NCBI GenBank assembly: GCA_025823825.1
Contig: GCA_025823825.1_4720.1
Length of the DNA stretch: 64,000 nucleotides
DNA from: a phage
Reading direction: 5' to 3' (one strand)
The position numbers and the translations under genes were made by a program. Of this stretch, positions 6,651-60,063 are shown piece by piece; position 1 is the stretch's first letter, and every line of letters begins with the position of its first letter. The notes beneath the pieces were generated by a model. It saw nothing but the letters and a program-made list of their open reading frames with translations, had not been told where the DNA came from and made no database searches.

Positions 6651-6656
6651 CATATT

Positions 6657-6688
6657 CCCTCCTCCTTCCCTGACGGGTTGGAGGAGGG
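6657..6688. terminator. conserved CCTCC/GGAGG hairpin element (family member 1)
   Basis: CCCTCCTCC-TTCCC-TGAC-GGGTT-GGAGGAGGG; flanked by CATAT on the 5' side and TTATG on the 3' side. Confidence 0.6.
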
Positions 6689-6702
6689 TTATGCCGTCAA
6701 GC

Positions 6703-7913: not shown

Positions 7914-8437
7914 TAGTCGGCAAGCGGTTTCACCTTATTAATGGGCAACTGTACTTTACCGATGTTCTCTACATCCGCATCCGCATAGAGAACAATTTTA
8001 TCATCGTCTCTTTCCCAACGAATAATGAATCGACCAGGAAGAAGATTACCCTGTTCAAGAGACGCAGTAACCTGTTGTGTTAAAACAGACAACCAAGCAG
8101 GCATCAGTGTTGCGATGTCTAAGTCATTTGACCACTCAGCGCGTTGCTCCACTGGACGTAACATACGTTCGACGGTGCGTTGAACTGTTGCGGTGATATA
8201 GCCTTTATCTTCGTCACTGATTGGATCAGGGCGAGACACAAAACGTTCAGCAGGCTTGTGGGTAATATACTCATGCAAATCGATGAGTGGTGTTGTCATA
8301 GTACTCGCTCCATCAGAATGTAATTGGGTAACCCGTAGGGTTGTCTGCATGCTATTCAGCAGCGCAAAAGCGCCATAAACAACAATGATACTAAGTACGA
8401 CCAAAACAGAAATCATTAATGTGTATTGCATTGCCAT
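7904..8437 (-). CDS. membrane protein (177 aa)
   Basis: Track ORF; N-terminal hydrophobic helix LMISVLVVLSIIVVYGAFALL. Confidence 0.6.
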   Translation of the reverse strand: MAMQYTLMISVLVVLSIIVVYGAFALLNSMQTTLRVTQLHSDGASTMTTPLIDLHEYITHKPAERFVSRPDPISDEDKGYITATVQRTVERMLRPVEQRAEWSNDLDIATLMPAWLSVLTQQVTASLEQGNLLPGRFIIRWERDDDKIVLYADADVENIGKVQLPINKVKPLADYWV

Positions 8438-9212: not shown

Positions 9213-9237
9213 TCACCTAAGTAATATAGCCGTGAAA
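9213..9237 (-). promoter_or_regulatory. promoter-like motif, copy 1 (TATATTAC core)
   Basis: Minus-strand reading TTTCACGGCTATATTACTTAGGTGA, about 25 nt upstream of the ATG at 9189; near-identical to the copies at 21.76 kb and 58.6 kb. Confidence 0.55.
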
Positions 9238-10808: not shown

Positions 10809-10840
10809 CATCCTCCCAACCCGTAAGGGAAGGGAGGATG
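10809..10840. terminator. conserved CCTCC/GGAGG hairpin element (family member 2)
   Basis: CATCCTCCC-AACCC-GTAA-GGGAA-GGGAGGATG between convergent genes; flanks CATAA ... ATATG. Confidence 0.6.
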
Positions 10841-14205: not shown

Positions 14206-16662
14206 TTAAATAATCGTGACGTGTTCGTTATATGTTTCAGGGAGAATGATGTTCGTTTTATCAAGAACCATACACTCGGCTTTACGGAATGATGCATGGT
14301 TGATCACGTAGTGACTGATGAACCACACCTGGCTTACGCGGTGACCATCAACCAGACGACGAACAAAATCCATGGCATTAGATTGGTGCTGCGGATCAAA
14401 TGTTGATGCGAATTCATCTAACATCAACGGATAATCCGTAAACCCCTTGTAATGCATCATCGCGATGATGAACGCGATATTGATAATTTCCTTTTGTCCC
14501 TTACTCCCATAAACAATATCTTTTCGCGGTGTCGGATACTTCTCAGTTAAAAGCGGAAAACGATAGTTCAATCCTTGCGCGTCGATAGCACACGGGAGTA
14601 TCTGAAGTTGGTATTCCCAAATACTCGCAATGATACCATTCATGTATTCGACGAACGCGTTGATGGGACCCGCAATTGTTTCGGCAATCAGTCCGTTGGA
14701 TGGACTCAACTCATCCAGAACAAGTTGTGCGTAACTGAGCTGTTCTTCCACCTCTTTTTGTGTCGTTTCCAACTGAGCCAGAAGCTGCTGGTCGGTTTTA
14801 GCTTCCTGTAGTTGCTGTTCGACATGACTTATTCGGCGAACTGTATCAGACATCGCAGCACGTAACGATTTCGTGTAGAGGTGTTGCAGATACTCTAACC
14901 ACAGTTGCGTTAACGCTTTATCGCTGTTATCAGAACGCACCTGATCTTCCATAACCGCCGTAATGGTTTCCAATCTACCTTCCGTAGCTGTGATGGCTTG
15001 TGTTAACCGCTCAACGGTTGTTAACAACTCTGTCCTGTTCTTATAAAGCAATTCTCGACGTTGCTGTAACGGTTCAACATCAACCGCTTGTACCCGTTCG
15101 AGCATGCCTTGAAGATGCTTCCGTTCCTGTTCGGCTTGTGTGTAACGCGCAAGTTTCTCAAACGCAAGCAACCAATCGTTAATGATGCCAATGCTGCGGA
15201 ATCCTAAACCGTTTTTGCGGCCTTCTTCCAGCAGATTATCCCACATGGGTTTAATAGCGTAATAATCTTTCGTCCAACGTGTTAACTGACGATGTTGTTC
15301 CATCCAAAGCGTATAGCGCTGCACCTTCTCACTAAGCTCAGCTAACGATTTCTCCTGTTCTTCAACCCAGGCATGGCCCTTCTGAATACGTTGTTCAATA
15401 CCCGCTTTGCTGGTCTTTTCTGTCTCACCAACATGAAAGCGATAATTGCATTTTGGACAGCTGGTCTGGGGTTGATGGTTAAGGTGGTCGAGATGCGCTT
15501 CCAAATCGGCTAACGCATGTTTCGCGTTACGCAAACGCATTCTTGCCGCCTCTTCCTCCTTGATGTAAGCTTCAGCATCGTAAACATGATAGGTGTTGTC
15601 GGTATCAATCCATTCTTGGAGTAATTCCGTTAACGGAGCCTGAACTTGCGTGAGCTGTTGTAAACAAACCGCAGCGTCCAGATTCATCGTTAAAAGCTCG
15701 CCTGGATGATCTTGCTGAAGTTGTTCGTCCAAACGTGCGAGGCGGGCTTTAATCTGATCGATATCACCTTCACCAGACTGTTTCAACTGGTCAAGGATAT
15801 TATCGATACCCAACAGCTCGTCAACCTGACTTTCGAGTTTCGCATTCGCATTCGCGAGTTGCTCTCTTAGTTCAGCCAGATTCTGCTGTTCTTGTTGCGA
15901 TGTTCCTCCTTGGTAACGAACAACCGCATGAAGAAGCTCGCGATTAAAATGATGAGCACGTTGTGCGGATTCCAGAAGCTGTCGTTGATCAACATCACTA
16001 TCGAATAACGGCAATCCCATCATCGCTTCGAGCGCTGAGCGTTGCTGCTTTAACTCCGCTTCCAATCCCTGGTGGTCGGTTCCGGTGTATTTCGCTTCAA
16101 TGCGCTGTGATGTTTCAACCAACTTATTCAATGTATGCTCATTCACCGCTTTCAGTGAACGTACTTGTTGCTTAACAACCTGAAACAACTCGAGCGCATA
16201 ATCGACGTTAACCGGGCATATCTGCGTTAATCGTTCGCGACGTTTCATCGGTCCCATTTCGGTGAACTGGTAAGCTGTTTCGTAACCTAACAACAAACGA
16301 ATGGTGTCGTCATTAAGTTCGAAATGTTCTTCGATCAGTTTCCACTGGGCCGGTTGTGTGCCACCACCATTCAGGTTCTCGCTATCGTTAACGTAGAACT
16401 CATGCTTAAACCCTTTTTCTAAACGACTGATAAGACGGTATTGCTTATTACGGTGTTCGCAGCGGTACTCGTAATACCCGTCTTTATCAAAATCGGCACG
16501 CTCAGGAACGGTCGGATACAGCAAAGGCAATAGACTACTCTTACCCGAACCATTACTGCCTAAAATGAGTTGTACGGGATTATCTGGCCGGATGACCAGC
16601 TCCCGAATCATCCCGGTATCAAAACGATTGAATCCACGTAAGTGGAGATAGGTGCATCGCAT
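14206..16662 (-). CDS. Rad50/SbcC-like ATPase with zinc hook
   Basis: Walker A LILGSNGSGKSS; long central coiled coil with CPKC hook at mid-length; C-terminal signature-like GSKGQKE, Walker B LMLDEF and H-loop FISHY. Start set to the ATG at 16662 (MRCTYLHLRGF, AAGGA upstream). Confidence 0.85.
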   Translation of the reverse strand: MRCTYLHLRGFNRFDTGMIRELVIRPDNPVQLILGSNGSGKSSLLPLLYPTVPERADFDKDGYYEYRCEHRNKQYRLISRLEKGFKHEFYVNDSENLNGGGTQPAQWKLIEEHFELNDDTIRLLLGYETAYQFTEMGPMKRRERLTQICPVNVDYALELFQVVKQQVRSLKAVNEHTLNKLVETSQRIEAKYTGTDHQGLEAELKQQRSALEAMMGLPLFDSDVDQRQLLESAQRAHHFNRELLHAVVRYQGGTSQQEQQNLAELREQLANANAKLESQVDELLGIDNILDQLKQSGEGDIDQIKARLARLDEQLQQDHPGELLTMNLDAAVCLQQLTQVQAPLTELLQEWIDTDNTYHVYDAEAYIKEEEAARMRLRNAKHALADLEAHLDHLNHQPQTSCPKCNYRFHVGETEKTSKAGIEQRIQKGHAWVEEQEKSLAELSEKVQRYTLWMEQHRQLTRWTKDYYAIKPMWDNLLEEGRKNGLGFRSIGIINDWLLAFEKLARYTQAEQERKHLQGMLERVQAVDVEPLQQRRELLYKNRTELLTTVERLTQAITATEGRLETITAVMEDQVRSDNSDKALTQLWLEYLQHLYTKSLRAAMSDTVRRISHVEQQLQEAKTDQQLLAQLETTQKEVEEQLSYAQLVLDELSPSNGLIAETIAGPINAFVEYMNGIIASIWEYQLQILPCAIDAQGLNYRFPLLTEKYPTPRKDIVYGSKGQKEIINIAFIIAMMHYKGFTDYPLMLDEFASTFDPQHQSNAMDFVRRLVDGHRVSQVWFISHYVINHASFRKAECMVLDKTNIILPETYNEHVTII

Positions 16663-21754: not shown

Positions 21755-21771
21755 GTAATATAGCCGTGAAA
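21755..21771 (-). promoter_or_regulatory. promoter-like motif, copy 2 (TATATTAC core)
   Basis: Minus-strand reading TTTCACGGCTATATTACCTTCATGA; identical 17-nt core to copy 1. Confidence 0.55.
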
Positions 21772-34410: not shown

Positions 34411-34420
34411 CCAAACATAA

Positions 34421-34452
34421 CCCTCCTCCAACCCATCAGGGAAGGAGGAGGG
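34421..34452. terminator. conserved CCTCC/GGAGG hairpin element (family member 5)
   Basis: CCCTCCTCC-AACCC-ATCA-GGGAA-GGAGGAGGG; flanks CATAA ... AATATG. Confidence 0.65.
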
Positions 34453-34461
34453 AATATGCTG

Positions 34462-49952: not shown

Positions 49953-49986
49953 TTTTTTCTATTCGCAACGATAAACGGCATAGAAA

Positions 49987-50016
49987 CCTCCCCCAACCCT
50001 TACGGGCTGAGGGAGG
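49987..50016. terminator. conserved CCTCC/GGAGG hairpin element (family member 7)
   Basis: CCTCCCCC-AACCC-TTACGGGCTGA-GGGAGG, downstream of the 740-aa gene; on the minus strand it is followed by TTTCTATGCCGTTTATCG. Confidence 0.55.
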
Positions 50017-54758: not shown

Positions 54759-54781
54759 ACACAAAAAAAGATTGTACGGTT

Positions 54782-54813
54782 CCCTCCTCCAACCCGTAAG
54801 GGAAGGAGGAGGG
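54782..54813. terminator. conserved CCTCC/GGAGG hairpin element (family member 8)
   Basis: CCCTCCTCC-AACCC-GTAA-GGGAA-GGAGGAGGG between convergent genes; T7 run on the minus strand; GGGGTTATG on the 3' flank. Confidence 0.65.
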
Positions 54814-54829
54814 GTTATGACCGCTTTGA

Positions 54830-55156
54830 TTAACTTATTGTCGTGAATTCATTAGGTGAAAATTTCCAGCCGTTCTCAGTGAGAAGCGTGTTGAGTTTCG
54901 CTGCAACGATAAGCCATGCATGCATGGCCGTTACATCGTATTGGCGATTCACTCGACGTTGGTTTTCGATATTGATTTGCTCCTGTTCGGTGATGTTTGG
55001 ATAAAGTGCGATAGCGCTAGGTTTACCCAGCGCGCTAGTCATCACCGCCGTACATTCACTGATAATGTTGTTTAAGTGGTAGTTATACACCGTTCCACGC
55101 ATGACGCGATGACGGCATTCGATAATAGCGTCGTAAATGATTTCTCGAGTAATCAT
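54830..55156 (-). CDS. hypothetical protein (108 aa)
   Basis: Track ORF; last gene of the operon behind the promoter-like motif at 58.6 kb. Confidence 0.5.
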   Translation of the reverse strand: MITREIIYDAIIECRHRVMRGTVYNYHLNNIISECTAVMTSALGKPSAIALYPNITEQEQINIENQRRVNRQYDVTAMHAWLIVAAKLNTLLTENGWKFSPNEFTTIS

Positions 55157-55162
55157 GATAAT

Positions 55163-55564
55163 TTAAAACATACGGTCGTTTTTAGCACGGGCGTCCATTA
55201 CCAGATCGTAGATGCCTGCGGTTCGTAAGCACTCTTCGTAGTAACGATGTGTGCCTTCCTCAGCCATCCACGATAACCCTCGGCTATCCGCAACGATAAC
55301 CAGTTTGTTATTGTTGAACGCACACACCACACGGTAGGTCGCGTTGTTATTCGGATCGCGAGTGATAAGTTCGTAAACGCCGTTAACAGGTTTACTGAAT
55401 TCACCGTTTAACGGGATGAGTTCGGTAGTACCTTCAGCAAACGTTACGTTGATCGGTGATGGATCTTTGGCGATAACAGTATATTCCACATTGTGTTCTT
55501 TACTGGTCATGATACCGAAGTAAGAACTGACAGGGGAACGCGGTACACTAAGAATATTAAACAT
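55163..55564 (-). CDS. hypothetical protein (133 aa)
   Basis: Track ORF. Confidence 0.5.
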   Translation of the reverse strand: MFNILSVPRSPVSSYFGIMTSKEHNVEYTVIAKDPSPINVTFAEGTTELIPLNGEFSKPVNGVYELITRDPNNNATYRVVCAFNNNKLVIVADSRGLSWMAEEGTHRYYEECLRTAGIYDLVMDARAKNDRMF

Positions 55565-55633
55565 AAATGTTGTCCTCTTAATTGGATTTAGATTGTTGGG
55601 TATGTGATTGGAAATGAAAACGTTGTTTCGGTT

Positions 55634-56203
55634 TTAGACGATGAGCGACCAGGTGGTAAGCACCCCGCTTGCGAATTCGAGCTTAAGACGTTTACCGATA
55701 AGTTGTTGTTGGATCATCTTCTCGGTGATGCGTCGATCTTGCTGAACCGCTTTATCAAACGCTTCTTTTGCTTCAGCTTGGTAGAAGTTCGTTTCTTCGT
55801 TTTCGTCGATCTCTTCGAGCGTATCCTCGTCGATGTCGGCAAGTTTCACTCGACCGTTTTCATCAGGTTGTTCTGCAGGTTCATTGTCATACGGCGTGTC
55901 TTTTGTTGGTGCGACACGATGTTGCAACTCGACCTGTGTTAACATGATCTCCATCTCACCATCGATAGGAATGATTTCATCGGCGCTGCCGTTTTCGGTT
56001 AGCTCTCGACTTTCCAGTAATGTCGTGGTAACAGAGAACACCTCTTCAACAGGAACCTCGTCATCGTCGATGGTGTTAACCGTGTTGCTGGTAACTTCGG
56101 CAACGACCATCAAATCAAATGCGTGAGGGTCACCTGGCATTTTGATGCCTGGAAGTTTGTTGAGGTACCAAGGATCAAGAATCATGATTTCTGGATTAAA
56201 CAT
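55634..56203 (-). CDS. highly acidic protein (189 aa)
   Basis: Runs of Asp/Glu: DDDEVPVEEV, DNEPAEQPDENG, DIDEDTLEEIDENEETN. Confidence 0.55.
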   Translation of the reverse strand: MFNPEIMILDPWYLNKLPGIKMPGDPHAFDLMVVAEVTSNTVNTIDDDEVPVEEVFSVTTTLLESRELTENGSADEIIPIDGEMEIMLTQVELQHRVAPTKDTPYDNEPAEQPDENGRVKLADIDEDTLEEIDENEETNFYQAEAKEAFDKAVQQDRRITEKMIQQQLIGKRLKLEFASGVLTTWSLIV

Positions 56204-56272
56204 CGTATTTTACCTTTCTATGTTAGGTGGATTGCGGATAGAAGAATCAATGCATAGGTTGATCGTTCTTTG

Positions 56273-56719
56273 TTAGAAATTATTGCCGAACTGGTTATGG
56301 TTATATGGTTGGTAGTGTCCGTAATTACCTGGGAAGCCACCATACGGCACAGGCTCCGGTTTAGGGATTTCCATGGTCGGATTTTTGGAATTGATTGCCA
56401 TCACGTAAATTGTTACGGGTGATACCGCGCGATTCATTTCGACGGCCACACGACGGATGTAGCCAACGTATGCTGTTATTGCAGGCATTAGCTTGTCCCC
56501 TTCGGTAGTTATAACGGTACCATCAGAAAGAATCTCGCGAACCGCGCACCATTTACCAAGATGAACGCCTTGCTGCGGCTTTATTCCAGTAGCGATAGAG
56601 AGATAGGTATCGTACGTCGTTTGATGATTCGGATGGCTATAGATAGATTCTGCTTTGGTTTCGTCTTTTCCTAAGTATTCGCCTTGCATGGGGGTAGGAG
56701 TTGATGAAGAATGTGGCAT
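56273..56719 (-). CDS. paralog-family protein, short member (148 aa)
   Basis: Shares HP..TTYD.YL.I, W..VREI..DGT and LAIDSKNP/MAINSKNP with the next two genes. Confidence 0.6.
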   Translation of the reverse strand: MPHSSSTPTPMQGEYLGKDETKAESIYSHPNHQTTYDTYLSIATGIKPQQGVHLGKWCAVREILSDGTVITTEGDKLMPAITAYVGYIRRVAVEMNRAVSPVTIYVMAINSKNPTMEIPKPEPVPYGGFPGNYGHYQPYNHNQFGNNF

Positions 56720-56830
56720 GTTCGATTCTCCTTCGAGTTGTTTGATCGATTGTTCAACTGGTACTGATTACGATTGGTTGATAACAGTAGAGCTACCGCT
56801 TAAAAACTCTACCGTTGTTTAGATACCGTA

Positions 56831-57691
56831 TTAGGATATACGGTGCATCGTCGGTGCGATTGGTCGTTGACCAAGGTAGAATGTATATCTCGGACGATTC
56901 TTCGGTGCCTGGTTTGGTTGAGGATTCTTCGAATCGATAGCTAACACATAGTACTGAAGTGTGGGGTTGAGTGTCGTCAGATAGTTTCTGATGAACTCCT
57001 TGTTTAAACTTTCAGTCGGGGTTAATACATGTCCGTTGATTGTAACGACGGTGCCGTCGGAACGTATTTCACGAACAATGCACCAGGCCCCCGCACCAAC
57101 ATCGGTAGGGATAGTCGTGCTGGGTGTGATGGTTAGATATTTATCGAAGAATTCGCAGCAAAGAGGATGCTTATAGACCGTTACGGTATCATCTCCTGGC
57201 GAGGTTCTCTCTTTTGTTACAAGATCCATTGCTGGTACGAAAGTGTTGATTTTGGCAACCTTATCGGCATCTTCGTTCGCTTCGATATAAATCTCTGCTT
57301 TACCGTACACGCTCTGAACTAAACGACGTAACTGTTCGTATGTTTTCGGTGAGGTTAGCTGCACCCGACTGAGCAGTTCATCGTACCAAGCTTCGAAGGT
57401 GCTTGTTGGTATCTTAACGTATGCCTTATTCCCGGTTTCATTTTCATCCCGGAAGATAATCGCAACGGTATCAGGCTCGTCAAGAGAGTCCAGGTAAACG
57501 ATGTGCTCGACCAACGCAGAAAATGTCTTACGTCCAATTCCCCCATAGTACGGGATTGCTGAATGAACCAGCCGCCAGTTACATGAAGTTTGGATATGAT
57601 CGAAGGCGTTGATCATGTTTTTACTATAACGAAAAATTTCAGTAAAATATTCTTTACGTTCTTTACTAAGACGTTTGTATATCTTGGTCAT
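56831..57691 (-). CDS. paralog-family protein (286 aa)
   Basis: C-terminal domain ...YKHPLCCEFFDKYLTITPS...WCIVREIRSDGTVVT...YVLAIDSKNP; N-terminus MTKIYKRL parallels MTDIYQKL in 57745..58545. Confidence 0.6.
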   Translation of the reverse strand: MTKIYKRLSKERKEYFTEIFRYSKNMINAFDHIQTSCNWRLVHSAIPYYGGIGRKTFSALVEHIVYLDSLDEPDTVAIIFRDENETGNKAYVKIPTSTFEAWYDELLSRVQLTSPKTYEQLRRLVQSVYGKAEIYIEANEDADKVAKINTFVPAMDLVTKERTSPGDDTVTVYKHPLCCEFFDKYLTITPSTTIPTDVGAGAWCIVREIRSDGTVVTINGHVLTPTESLNKEFIRNYLTTLNPTLQYYVLAIDSKNPQPNQAPKNRPRYTFYLGQRPIAPTMHRIS

Positions 57692-57744
57692 TTTTGTAGC
57701 TCCTCGATTAAAGTAAAGATGAACGCGATCATTTATTATCGCTT

Positions 57745-58545
57745 TTAGTTTTTACCATTCCCCCAGCTAGGTTCTTCGTAGAAATGATGCGGATAACCAG
57801 AGTAGGAACCCATGACACAAGAGGCCGTTTCTTTTCGTGAATCGATGACCAGCGCATAAAACTGTCTGAGGTTCGACAACATAGAGAAATAAGACGACAG
57901 CACTTTTTCGTTTAACGCATCGCACGGTAAGCAGGTGCGACCGCAAAACGTCACAATACGGCCATCAGGATAGATCTCACGAATCATTCGCCATTCACCG
58001 ATGTCGACCGGCGACGGTGTAGATGTACCGCCCGTTATTGTTAAATATCGGTCGTACGTAGTACGGCATTCAGGATGAACGTAAATCGGTTGGGCATCAA
58101 TACTATCGTTTTCTGTTTGATCTTTACTCACGTATACCTCAAGGTAGATTGTTGGTAACCCGGTTAGAACGCCAGTATCACGACGTTTTTTGGTAATCCG
58201 GGGACGGATATTATCGAGCACGCCTTCCAGTTTTTCTGCGACTTCGTCAGCCGGTAATATATACCCGTATGTTGGTTCTGGGTCATCATCGTGGCTAAAT
58301 AAGATACGACAGTCGTTTTTATTAAATTCTATATCTTCAGGTGGGAAGATGATGACGCGAACCGTATGGCGTTCTGCGATATAAAATCCTTCAGGCCCCT
58401 CAGTTTTGGTAAGTGTAAAGGACCAGGATGAATGATCTTCAAGTGACGTGCCTGCCAGGAAAAAGTCCGCCCGAATTGGTGCGTTCCATTTCGCGATCAT
58501 ATTGGCGTGACCAATAACGCCTAATTTTTGATAAATATCTGTCAT
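57745..58545 (-). CDS. paralog-family protein (266 aa), first gene of the operon
   Basis: C-terminal domain ...YVHPECRTTYDRYLTITGG...WRMIREIYPDGRIVT...YALVIDSRKE; the promoter-like motif lies about 60 nt upstream. Confidence 0.6.
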   Translation of the reverse strand: MTDIYQKLGVIGHANMIAKWNAPIRADFFLAGTSLEDHSSWSFTLTKTEGPEGFYIAERHTVRVIIFPPEDIEFNKNDCRILFSHDDDPEPTYGYILPADEVAEKLEGVLDNIRPRITKKRRDTGVLTGLPTIYLEVYVSKDQTENDSIDAQPIYVHPECRTTYDRYLTITGGTSTPSPVDIGEWRMIREIYPDGRIVTFCGRTCLPCDALNEKVLSSYFSMLSNLRQFYALVIDSRKETASCVMGSYSGYPHHFYEEPSWGNGKN

Positions 58546-58600: not shown

Positions 58601-58625
58601 TCACCTTAGTAATATAGCCATGAAA
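58601..58625 (-). promoter_or_regulatory. promoter-like motif, copy 3 (TATATTAC core)
   Basis: Minus-strand reading TTTCATGGCTATATTACTAAGGTGA; differs from copy 1 at 2 of 25 positions. Confidence 0.55.
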
Positions 58626-58659: not shown

Positions 58660-58691
58660 CCCTCTCCCAACCCATAAGGGAAGGGAGAGGG
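58660..58691. terminator. conserved CCTCC/GGAGG hairpin element (family member 9)
   Basis: CCCTCTCCC-AACCC-ATAA-GGGAA-GGGAGAGGG just downstream of the stop of 58696..60063; CATAG on the 5' flank. Confidence 0.65.
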
Positions 58692-58695
58692 AATA

Positions 58696-60063
58696 TTAAA
58701 CGGTTGGACGAACGGTGTTGTCTTTTTCTGGTGCAAGCCATAACGTGACCGTACCATGACATGTCCACTGTGGTTCACGTACAGAAGAACCTGCCATTGT
58801 AACAGCGCAATCGGTACGCATGATAACCCCGTATGCTTCGCAGAGATTGTTATCCTGCATCCACACAACTTTAGCAGGCATGCCGGGATACAACATATCC
58901 ATGTTTGCGTACTCCCACACCAACTGCATTGTCCTGCCGCGTAATCCAGCAGTATTACTTAATTCACGCCATCGGTTATCGGTTACGCGTCCCATCCCTT
59001 TCGCCACCTTCACGTTATCGCTACGTTCTTCAGTTACGTACTCGCTAACGTTTACGGTACGACTGATTATTGTATCGCCCCCTTTTGATAATGTCATTCC
59101 CTGACTCATCTGACTTGCCGAAACAAAACGCCCACCCGCATTACCTAACAACGAAGCCGCGTTATTGATGTCGCTTACCGACGCCCCTCTCGTACAGGCG
59201 ATTTCCACGTATTTGTCACGATTGATCCAGGTCTTGTCCATACCCGGAAACATATCGGCAGGATAGTTGTAAAAGATAGCCGTACGGCGACCATCAGAGA
59301 AACGGGTTTCGTCGTAGAGAGGATAAATATACAGATACGGGGATTGATAATAACAACCGACGTCCGCTGAATAAATACCGACCTGGTTCTGGATTTTGTC
59401 TACGAGATCCATTGCGTTGGTGCCATGCGGAAGAATAAGCAACTTGAACAGGTTGTCGTTATTCGGTGCAACAATGTCTACACCCTGCATTTTGAATCCG
59501 GTGTCAGCTTCGACCGCAGAAAGTATCTTGCTGAATTCGAGTCGTAACACATCCAGAACTTTCGACCCAGTATAGTTTTCACCGGTTTCTGATTGCATGA
59601 AGCTTTCAAGAACAGGATCGAACAGTTGAAATTGAAGATCGACCATTTGTTCGTAGTCTTTCTTCGAAGAATCGGTTGCGGTACGTTCGTCGTTAGCAGA
59701 CATACGACTGTCTACGGTTGTTAAACAAACCGCTCGGTAGACGTAAGCTTGTGCAGCATCGTCTACGGTTTGGCGTTGTCCGCGCATCAGGCTGTACGCT
59801 TGCACGATGATGCGCATTTTAAGTTGTTGTTGGTACGGTAAGATGTATTTTCCGTAACTGCCTGGCGGGAACTTTACAGAGATATAAAGTTCATCTCCTG
59901 CGTTACGTTCATAGTCTCGATACGTGTGGACTTGAGTCACTAAAGGAACAGACACCGTCATTGACGGCGTGATTAATTCCGCGGTGACTTTATACGCAAC
60001 AGCAACTGCTTCCTGCGCAAATGTACCGATATACCGTCCTAACGGCGTCTGTTTGTAATCCAT
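58696..60063 (-). CDS. hypothetical protein (455 aa), last gene of a virion-type operon
   Basis: Track ORF; followed by a hairpin terminator; the upstream genes overlap it in series. Confidence 0.6.
   Translation of the reverse strand: MDYKQTPLGRYIGTFAQEAVAVAYKVTAELITPSMTVSVPLVTQVHTYRDYERNAGDELYISVKFPPGSYGKYILPYQQQLKMRIIVQAYSLMRGQRQTVDDAAQAYVYRAVCLTTVDSRMSANDERTATDSSKKDYEQMVDLQFQLFDPVLESFMQSETGENYTGSKVLDVLRLEFSKILSAVEADTGFKMQGVDIVAPNNDNLFKLLILPHGTNAMDLVDKIQNQVGIYSADVGCYYQSPYLYIYPLYDETRFSDGRRTAIFYNYPADMFPGMDKTWINRDKYVEIACTRGASVSDINNAASLLGNAGGRFVSASQMSQGMTLSKGGDTIISRTVNVSEYVTEERSDNVKVAKGMGRVTDNRWRELSNTAGLRGRTMQLVWEYANMDMLYPGMPAKVVWMQDNNLCEAYGVIMRTDCAVTMAGSSVREPQWTCHGTVTLWLAPEKDNTVRPTV

Follow-up and report, generated by a model that had tools for sequence, protein, structure and literature searches.

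What do six small genes on the minus strand, set among the virion genes of a jumbo phage, contribute to infection? The DNA examined here (the window, a 64,000-nt stretch of contig GCA_025823825.1_4720.1) belongs to a Goslar-like chimallivirus, with 96-98% nucleotide identity to Escherichia phage vB_EcoM_Goslar, the nucleus-forming jumbo phage of the Chimalliviridae that serves as the Escherichia coli model for phages of this kind (window positions 40000-64000 align to Goslar 33325-55116 at 91% coverage). Positions 54830-58545 (minus strand) form one transcription unit of six genes, preceded by a phiKZ-type early promoter and followed by a hairpin terminator. The unit is flanked on one side by the genes for a DnaB-like helicase and the major capsid protein and on the other by the gp048 operon, gp048 being a baseplate spike-cap protein (2026 preprint). 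A first-pass annotation, made from the letters alone, located the six open reading frames (ORFs) correctly, described the first three as paralogs and the fourth as a strongly acidic protein, and suggested an uncharacterised early function. The answer developed below is that the first three genes (P1, P2 and P3) belong to a family of two-domain proteins that varies in copy number and in allele among close relatives of Goslar, and that these proteins possibly act early, by binding variable factors of the host or of rival phages.

The evidence for a family comes from the proteins themselves. P1 (57745..58545, 266 residues), P2 (56831..57691, 286 residues) and P3 (56273..56719, 148 residues), all on the minus strand, match one another in pairwise BLASTP over 78-100 residues at 38-40% identity, with an expectation value (E) of 1e-16 for P1-P2 (40%, 88 residues), 9e-17 for P2-P3 (38%, 100 residues) and 1e-14 for P1-P3. 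A hidden Markov model (HMM) of the shared domain, run against a six-frame translation of the whole window, finds these three ORFs and no others, so the three-member paralogous family first proposed is sound. Its motifs need some correction. The first, given as H-P-x3-TTYD-x-YL-x-I, has as its invariant core Y-x-H-P-x5-[YF]-D-x-Y-L-x-I, with EFFD rather than TTYD in P2; the second is present as W-x2-[VI]REI-x2-DG-x-[VI]-x-T, one residue longer than noted; and the third, LAIDSKNP, is exact in P2 only (P3 has MAINSKNP, P1 has LVIDSRKE). The N-terminus MT[DK]IY[QK][KR]L common to P1 and P2 was read correctly. The C-terminal domain is shared as described, but confining the relation to it was an understatement: hhalign finds the N-terminal halves homologous too (probability 96.3%, E = 1.5e-9, 18% identity). 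Five protein types can be told apart, namely P1-A, P1-B, P2, P3 and a type of 277-300 residues, and the 300-residue type can be aligned over its whole length with P1, P2 and full-length P3 (identity 23-28%, E from 7.5e-17 to 4.7e-25). By these alignments P1-P3 are homologous over their full length, beyond the C-domain.

In its full-length types, each family member joins a fast-diverging N-domain to a conserved C-domain of ~95 residues and to a disordered tail that varies from type to type and abounds in Tyr, Gly, Asn, His and Pro. AlphaFold models, with a mean predicted local distance difference test score (pLDDT) of 68 and 64, have an alpha/beta N-domain (~1-140), a disordered linker, the C-domain and a disordered tail. 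In P1, whose N-domain is of type A, the linker covers residues 143-161, the C-domain ~162-238 and the tail 239-266. P2 has a homologous N-domain, the conserved C-domain and a basic tail (isoelectric point, pI, 11.6), while the P3 of the window consists of C-domain and tail alone. Modelled by itself, the C-domain follows the order beta-beta-beta-beta-alpha-beta, with pLDDT of 74-89 over the block. Types with ~25-40% identity retain 13 to 20 invariant or near-invariant residues, and the most conserved stretch is the W...REI...DG motif, found at residues 185-199 of P1 (57949-57993), 203-217 of P2 (57041-57085) and 57-71 of P3 (56507-56551). A conserved zinc site built from His and Cys residues was also considered and rejected, as its residues occur in the P1 type only and not in P2 or P3.

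Searches outside the family lead back to it. A word-indexed search of 5.8 billion proteins returns close relatives only, which come from metagenomes or from contigs of 236-250 kb in assemblies of E. coli, Salmonella and Shigella. Among 50,697 phage genomes, Goslar included, tblastn finds no match to the shared domain, and for the proteins of the three downstream genes it finds Goslar or nothing. Run against Pfam, PHROGs, NCBIfam and PADLOC, none of the six proteins or the variant types gives a significant match; nine proteins of the locus and its variants have no significant match among the defence and anti-defence models of PADLOC-DB; the PDB, searched by sequence, has no match to the domain profile or to the acidic protein; Foldseek against BFVD gives nothing below E = 0.1; and megablast of the insert gives no match in complete E. 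coli genomes or in plasmids. No description of the family turned up in the literature searched. The first-pass annotation recognised no domain in these proteins, and profile scans and Foldseek against BFVD likewise assign them to no known virion or housekeeping family. The protein family and its fold are without described relatives, and on these searches the family is restricted to Goslar-like phages, that is, to one genus.

An exhaustive HMMER search of 1.84 billion representatives yields the four clusters of the family itself, and its other matches are to NHL-repeat beta-propellers (PF01436) only, at E from 3e-8 to 6e-4. These values are summed over 4-10 repeats per target and concern a hairpin of ~18 residues; the family's W-x2-[VI]REI-x2-DG-x-[VI]-x-T indeed resembles the blade hairpin xIRxIxPDGxVTTxAG. 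Each paralog, however, has a single such hairpin, its C-domain is modelled not as a propeller but as a four-stranded sheet followed by a helix and a strand, and Pfam gives no NHL match even at E <= 1. Since Pfam is negative and each paralog holds a single copy, the assignment was rejected and the similarity is taken as motif resemblance only.

What sets this family apart from its neighbours is its variability. The interval from the spike-cap gene to the acidic gene can be read in 17 loci (those of relatives carry L-numbers), and 13 of these have one to three family copies. Three copies (P1, P2 and P3) are present in the window, L002, L003, L011 and L013; two copies (P1 and the 300-residue type) in seven loci; and one copy, a full-length P3, in L019. 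Goslar, L009 and L016 have none. L018 is a partial locus, with P2, the short form of P3 and the acidic gene seen. The array is thus an insertion-deletion polymorphism, and since Goslar (a viable laboratory phage), L009 and L016 have no copy and L019 just one, the basic lytic cycle can do without the family.

Goslar itself preserves a trace of how copies are lost. In place of window positions 56306-58540 (2,235 bp, containing P1, P2 and nearly all of P3) it has 40 bp, and from the ribosome-binding site of P1 it encodes a stub of 25 codons, MTLLIRDPSEYENTRYNHNQFGNNF. A full-length third paralog is available for comparison in L002 (291 residues, starting MTLLIRDPSEHE and ending YNHNRFGNNF), and by alignment the stub consists of the promoter, ribosome-binding site and ATGAC of P1, then codons 2-15 of full-length P3, then the last ~10 codons of P3. 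Because it joins pieces of P1 and of full-length P3, Goslar is a two-step deletion derivative of a three-gene ancestor, and the metagenomic relative L019, with full-length P3 as its sole copy, represents the intermediate. (The annotated Goslar gp047, of 62 residues, at L001 7762-7950 or 49584-49772 of the record, has its start within the hairpin that terminates the gp048 operon, and the call is probably wrong; more plausible as an ORF is the 25-codon remnant at the conserved ribosome-binding site, which is a relic of the deleted array rather than a gene in its own right.)

A separate deletion accounts for the short P3 of the window. Relative to L002 7777-8215, 439 bp are removed at the junction 56758..56767 (minus strand), and with them went the start codon and the N-domain of the 291-residue type. 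The product has a Shine-Dalgarno sequence of its own (AGGAG, 8 nt 5' of the ATG), and the short form recurs elsewhere as intact, diverged ORFs, in clusters of 32, 8 and 1 member sequences with ~65-95% identity. Given this recurrence and the good Shine-Dalgarno sequence, short P3 looks like a maintained protein, a C-domain that stands alone.

Exchange of sequence is as conspicuous as gain and loss. Proteins flanking the array are 97-100% identical across these genomes, and P1 falls as low as 49%. In the paralogs synonymous divergence (dS) is up to ten times higher; it is 0.9-1.9 in the C-domain of P1 against ~0.1 in the flanks, and it can switch inside a single gene: between the window and L007, dS is 0.08 in the N-domain of P1 and 1.36 in its C-domain. 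Of the N-domain there are two main types, with 14-20% mutual identity, and of the C-domain with its tail there are three; all six possible combinations occur. The translation-initiation region, ...taatcRAGGAG...ATGAC, is conserved among the paralogs and gives unequal crossing-over a substrate. The dS jumps, the reassortment of domain types and the shared initiation region together indicate recombination and gene conversion among co-circulating relatives rather than fast local mutation, and the locus is a recombination hot spot with variable copy number. None of this variation has the look of decay, for the ORFs stay intact even where alleles have diverged, and no interrupted or frameshifted copy occurs in the 17 loci. 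Since the ratio of nonsynonymous to synonymous divergence (dN/dS) is 0.1-0.4 in the paralogs against 0.00-0.15 in the flanking and downstream genes, the paralogs are under purifying selection, though less constrained than their neighbours.

When in infection is the array read? The motif TTTCAYGGCTATATTAC occurs in exact form three times in the window (9221, 21755 and 58609, all on the minus strand), and the unit does stand behind the third copy, as first noted; allowing up to three mismatches, there are four window matches against 0.21 expected from shuffles. The copy in question (TTTCATGGCTATATTAC, 58609..58625, minus strand) lies ~63 nt 5' of the P1 start codon. It fits the early-promoter consensus of the phiKZ group, having the TATATTAC core and an upstream TTTCA element; the published consensus is TATATTAC for phiKZ and TTTRARR-BTATATTACDWHDGTG for 201phi2-1 (PMC7058600 Table 2). 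The other two exact copies, at 9221-9237 and 21755-21771 (minus strand), correspond to Goslar 2560-2576 and 15060-15076 and head blocks orthologous to gp004-001 and gp021-014. In Goslar the same motif lies 31 nt 5' of gp004 and 88 nt 5' of gp021, the first genes of early blocks, and a diverged copy precedes the gp047 remnant.

Expression data for the orthologous unit, Goslar gp044-047, come from RNA sequencing (RNA-seq) reported in Supplementary Table 2 of a preprint on the Goslar early infection vesicle (10.1101/2023.09.20.558163), where cells at 30 min were compared with and without knockdown of ChmA (chimallin). The knockdown arrests infection before the nucleus forms, and transcripts split into two classes (10.1101/2023.09.20.558163). 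The unit gp044-047 has log2 fold changes of +0.7 to +1.3, and the early blocks gp001-004, gp014-021 and gp037-040 respond in the same way, while the flanking gp043 (-3.9 to -5.5) and gp048 (-3.2) fall in the nucleus-dependent class (10.1101/2023.09.20.558163). Because the promoter matches the consensus and the transcripts of Goslar gp044-047 are nucleus-independent, the unit is early. The first-pass label of an early function therefore holds for the unit, the paralogs themselves being absent from Goslar, and the idea of a single transcription unit behind a repeated promoter is supported as well. Gaps between its genes are 6-111 nt, and every gene has its own Shine-Dalgarno sequence.

Two further observations concern the promoter. 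A fourth, weaker copy (TTGCATGAGTATATTAC, 3 mismatches) lies at window 8262-8278 (minus strand) and is kept at Goslar 1601-1617, inside the coding region of gp003. The early block gp037-040, on the other hand, lacks a copy even when 3 mismatches are allowed, so there may be a second type of early promoter.

The function that we favour, at a probability of about 0.4, is that of early cytoplasmic binding proteins, which would fit the phage to variable host factors (takeover targets or defences) or to factors of rival phages. The injected virion RNA polymerase would read the unit from its phiKZ-type promoter; the promoter-proximal part of the unit is a tandem array of the genus-specific family. 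Copies would be gained and lost by unequal crossing-over at the conserved 5' ends, N-domain and C-domain alleles reassort between close relatives, and the form made of the C-domain alone seems to be maintained. Target specificity would reside in the fast-diverging N-domain, and a common activity or docking function in the conserved C-domain and aromatic tail. We infer the cytoplasmic location, the action by binding rather than by catalysis, the division of labour between domains and the interaction with the host; profile, PDB and fold searches, for their part, turn up no enzyme or virion signature. Several points weigh against this proposal. dN/dS is below 1 everywhere, with no signal of positive selection at the level of whole domains, and cassette type has no association with the labelled host (E. 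coli, Salmonella or Shigella) in a small sample. Profile scans and Foldseek against BFVD supply no homolog of known role and no structural neighbour, and the AlphaFold models are of moderate confidence only, so that a known fold may have been missed. The expression data, finally, are from Goslar, where what is measured is the promoter, the remnant and the downstream genes.

A more ambitious form of the proposal, which we regard as a long shot, would make the array a new kind of early effector system, modular in build and peculiar to nucleus-forming phages. A C-module of new fold, with its single NHL-like hairpin and aromatic tail, would target the phage compartment or a shared host hub; interchangeable N-domains would neutralise host immune or takeover targets; and the tandem array would set host range as a "gene accordion". 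Were this true, Goslar would be a natural knockout.

Early expression and dispensability would serve equally well for proteins directed at other phages. In such a scheme the array would act in superinfection exclusion or other competition, on co-infecting relatives or on other phages, and its allele diversity would come from arms races between phages, not from those with hosts. The heavy exchange of alleles among relatives implies frequent co-infection, and chimalliviruses are known to compete through accessory genes (PMC11620839). Profile scans, however, detect no nuclease, membrane or other domain of the exclusion type, and the present data do not separate this explanation from host interaction; we judge it rather improbable. 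Similar doubt attaches to a role in the phage's own compartments, in which the C-domain and aromatic tail would dock the proteins on the chimallin shell and its import machinery or on the early infection vesicle, the N-domains acting as variable cargo or modulators. A conserved module and a disordered tail rich in Tyr, Gly, Asn and His, joined to variable N-domains, would fit this role, as would co-expression with the early nucleus-building genes and the confinement of the family to a chimallivirus genus. But Goslar makes a normal nucleus without the family, no other chimallivirus among the 50,697 phage genomes has it, and none of the searches brought up a resemblance to ChmA, ChmB, ChmC, PicA or Imp proteins, which leaves the idea unlikely.

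It is also conceivable, if hardly probable, that the array is nearly neutral, selfish or decaying ORFan DNA, under relaxed constraint, on its way to being lost and of no significant function. The family is wholly lost in Goslar, L009 and L016, one member is truncated, and the paralogs have dN/dS several-fold above that of the neighbouring genes. Against this, dN/dS of 0.1-0.4 at dS of up to ~2 amounts to long-term purifying selection, frameshifted or interrupted copies are lacking, the 13 to 20 invariant or near-invariant residues persist across types, and the truncated form has survived and diverged while remaining an intact ORF that has a Shine-Dalgarno sequence to itself. Least credible of all is that these are packaged internal or ejected proteins comparable to the internal proteins of T4, whose hypervariable locus encodes members with a short conserved N-terminal targeting sequence in common. 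The MT-x-IY-x-x-L N-terminus is indeed kept among members otherwise ~18% identical in the N-domain, and the locus does sit among virion genes. Its promoter, however, belongs to the early class, and transcription of the unit does not depend on the nucleus, whereas the adjacent virion genes fall 8- to 45-fold in the ChmA knockdown. In the models the N-terminal motif forms a confident beta-strand within the N-domain rather than a leader, and full-length P3 and short P3 do not have it. Goslar has no paralogs whose packaging could be seen, but in the accessible part of its virion proteomics table gp045 is listed at trace level (~6 copies per virion), among contaminating replication enzymes, and gp044, gp046 and gp047 are not found. 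With the operon partners absent or in trace amounts, that part of the table gives no support for a virion role.

The three downstream genes behave quite differently from the array. They encode the acidic protein (55634..56203, 189 residues), a protein of 133 residues (55163..55564) and, as the final gene of the unit, one of 108 residues (54830..55156), all on the minus strand and orthologous to Goslar gp046, gp045 and gp044, respectively; the last two are conserved ORFans. The three proteins are 97-100% identical among relatives, with dN/dS of at most 0.15 (0.03-0.06 for the acidic protein). They are the conserved core of the early unit, known only in the Goslar genus and matching no family.

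The acidic protein was singled out at first as strongly acidic, and it is: its pI is 4.12, Asp and Glu make up 22% of its residues, its net charge is -27, and it ranks first in acidity among 58 non-overlapping ORFs of the window. The statement that Asp/Glu runs dominate it was exaggerated, since only two runs reach three residues or more (DDDE and DED). The charge is instead concentrated in residues 41-140, with 31 Asp or Glu against 5 Lys or Arg, and is followed by a charge-balanced C-terminal segment with a hydrophobic end. The protein forms a single cluster at 90% identity and so offers no alignment depth for structure prediction. In Pfam it matches no family at E <= 1, in PHROGs none below E = 0.36, and neither Ocr nor ArdA is matched; a scan of genome contigs with it finds nothing. 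Its start is ambiguous, being annotated to give 189 or 168 residues (from the internal Met22) depending on the record (L003 2957-3463, L004 7902-8408, L008 7912-8418), and in L004 the upstream ATG and its context are intact.

Could this protein, by itself, mimic DNA and so act as a decoy for restriction enzymes or further DNA-binding proteins of the host, as its composition and charge might suggest? Its place as the most acidic of the 58 window proteins, and the early expression of its Goslar ortholog, are in keeping with such a role; like Ocr and ArdA it is small, early and strongly acidic. Unlike them, it has its charge concentrated centrally, and it has no similarity in sequence or profile to either of them or to any entry in Pfam, PHROGs or PDB. 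It is, moreover, highly conserved, and not the variable part of the operon. The DNA of chimalliviruses is shielded in a vesicle and later in a protein nucleus, and as a matter of general knowledge classical anti-restriction would be less needed there. We find the DNA-mimic explanation doubtful.

A hypervariable slot for accessory early genes is a familiar kind of feature in a large phage; the protein family that fills this one is new. Early units of the phiKZ group share with the present unit the TATATTAC core and TTTCA element, the nucleus-independent behaviour of the orthologous Goslar unit and a content of small ORFans, but the genes here are unrelated to any phiKZ early gene and the promoter is known from its motif. 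The internal-protein locus of T4-type phages is, like other plasticity regions of large phages, a hyperplastic accessory locus. By analogy, from general knowledge, it too is a fixed slot between conserved genes, holding varying numbers and versions of related small genes that are dispensable in the laboratory and have a short conserved N-terminus; the window unit differs in being early rather than late, with neither evidence of packaging or processing nor any sequence relationship. Poxvirus host-range genes and the multigene families (MGF) of African swine fever virus (ASFV) are tandem multigene families of large eukaryotic DNA viruses, described as gene accordions. They resemble the array in having tandem paralogs of variable copy number, plausible unequal crossing-over at conserved ends and modular proteins with a faster-evolving region, and they differ from it in that here the host is bacterial, the array has at most 3 copies and it is known without a link to any host restriction factor.

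Goslar, the standard model, is a natural knockout for the family. Near-isogenic phages with 0, 1, 2 and 3 copies and with swapped domain alleles make up a natural experiment on wild hosts, which opens the function to direct test, and their comparison bears on the part that accessory early proteins play in a phage whose DNA is physically shielded in any case. Should the family counter host immunity or rival phages, it would be a new family in the counter-defence repertoire of chimalliviruses and would offer a view of how that repertoire diversifies; if it has no phenotype, it would be an ordinary ORFan cluster.

The boundaries of the unit are marked by hairpins. Its terminator (54763..54818, minus strand) is a hairpin, CCCTCCTCC...GGAGGAGGG, followed by a run of T, and is held in common with the convergent gene for the DnaB-like helicase. 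Upstream, a hairpin with a 14-bp stem and a 4-nt loop (58660..58696, minus strand) ends the late structural operon of the gp048 spike-cap homolog. Both contain copies of a GC-rich hairpin family of ~37 nt (CCCTCYYCCAACCCRTAAGGGAAGGRRAGGG), which occurs at operon boundaries at 6652-6690, 10813-10836, 34419-34457, 49978-49999, 54782-54818 and 58660-58696 and is probably a common, possibly bidirectional, type of terminator. Scans for tRNA genes and Rfam families on both strands found nothing.

Many relatives have an extra ORFan of 210 residues, placed between the early promoter and the spike-cap gene and directly following the latter (L004 5226-5858; also L009, L011, L014, L016, L017, L019 and L020). 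It is absent from Goslar and from the window, where the site would be at ~58696, just past the gp048 homolog. No match to it was found in Pfam, NCBIfam or PADLOC, and its identification as an ADP-ribosyltransferase, from an R / S-x-T / Q-x-E pattern picked out by eye, was dropped, Pfam giving it no support.

Assemblies labelled Salmonella enterica, Shigella sonnei and E. coli contain complete or near-complete Goslar-like genomes (236-250 kb), each on one contig; among these genomes are L002, L004, L007 and the source contigs of proteins P0003, P0010, P0012 and P0015. This suggests that isolates carry these lytic jumbo phages and that the host range spans several enterobacterial genera.

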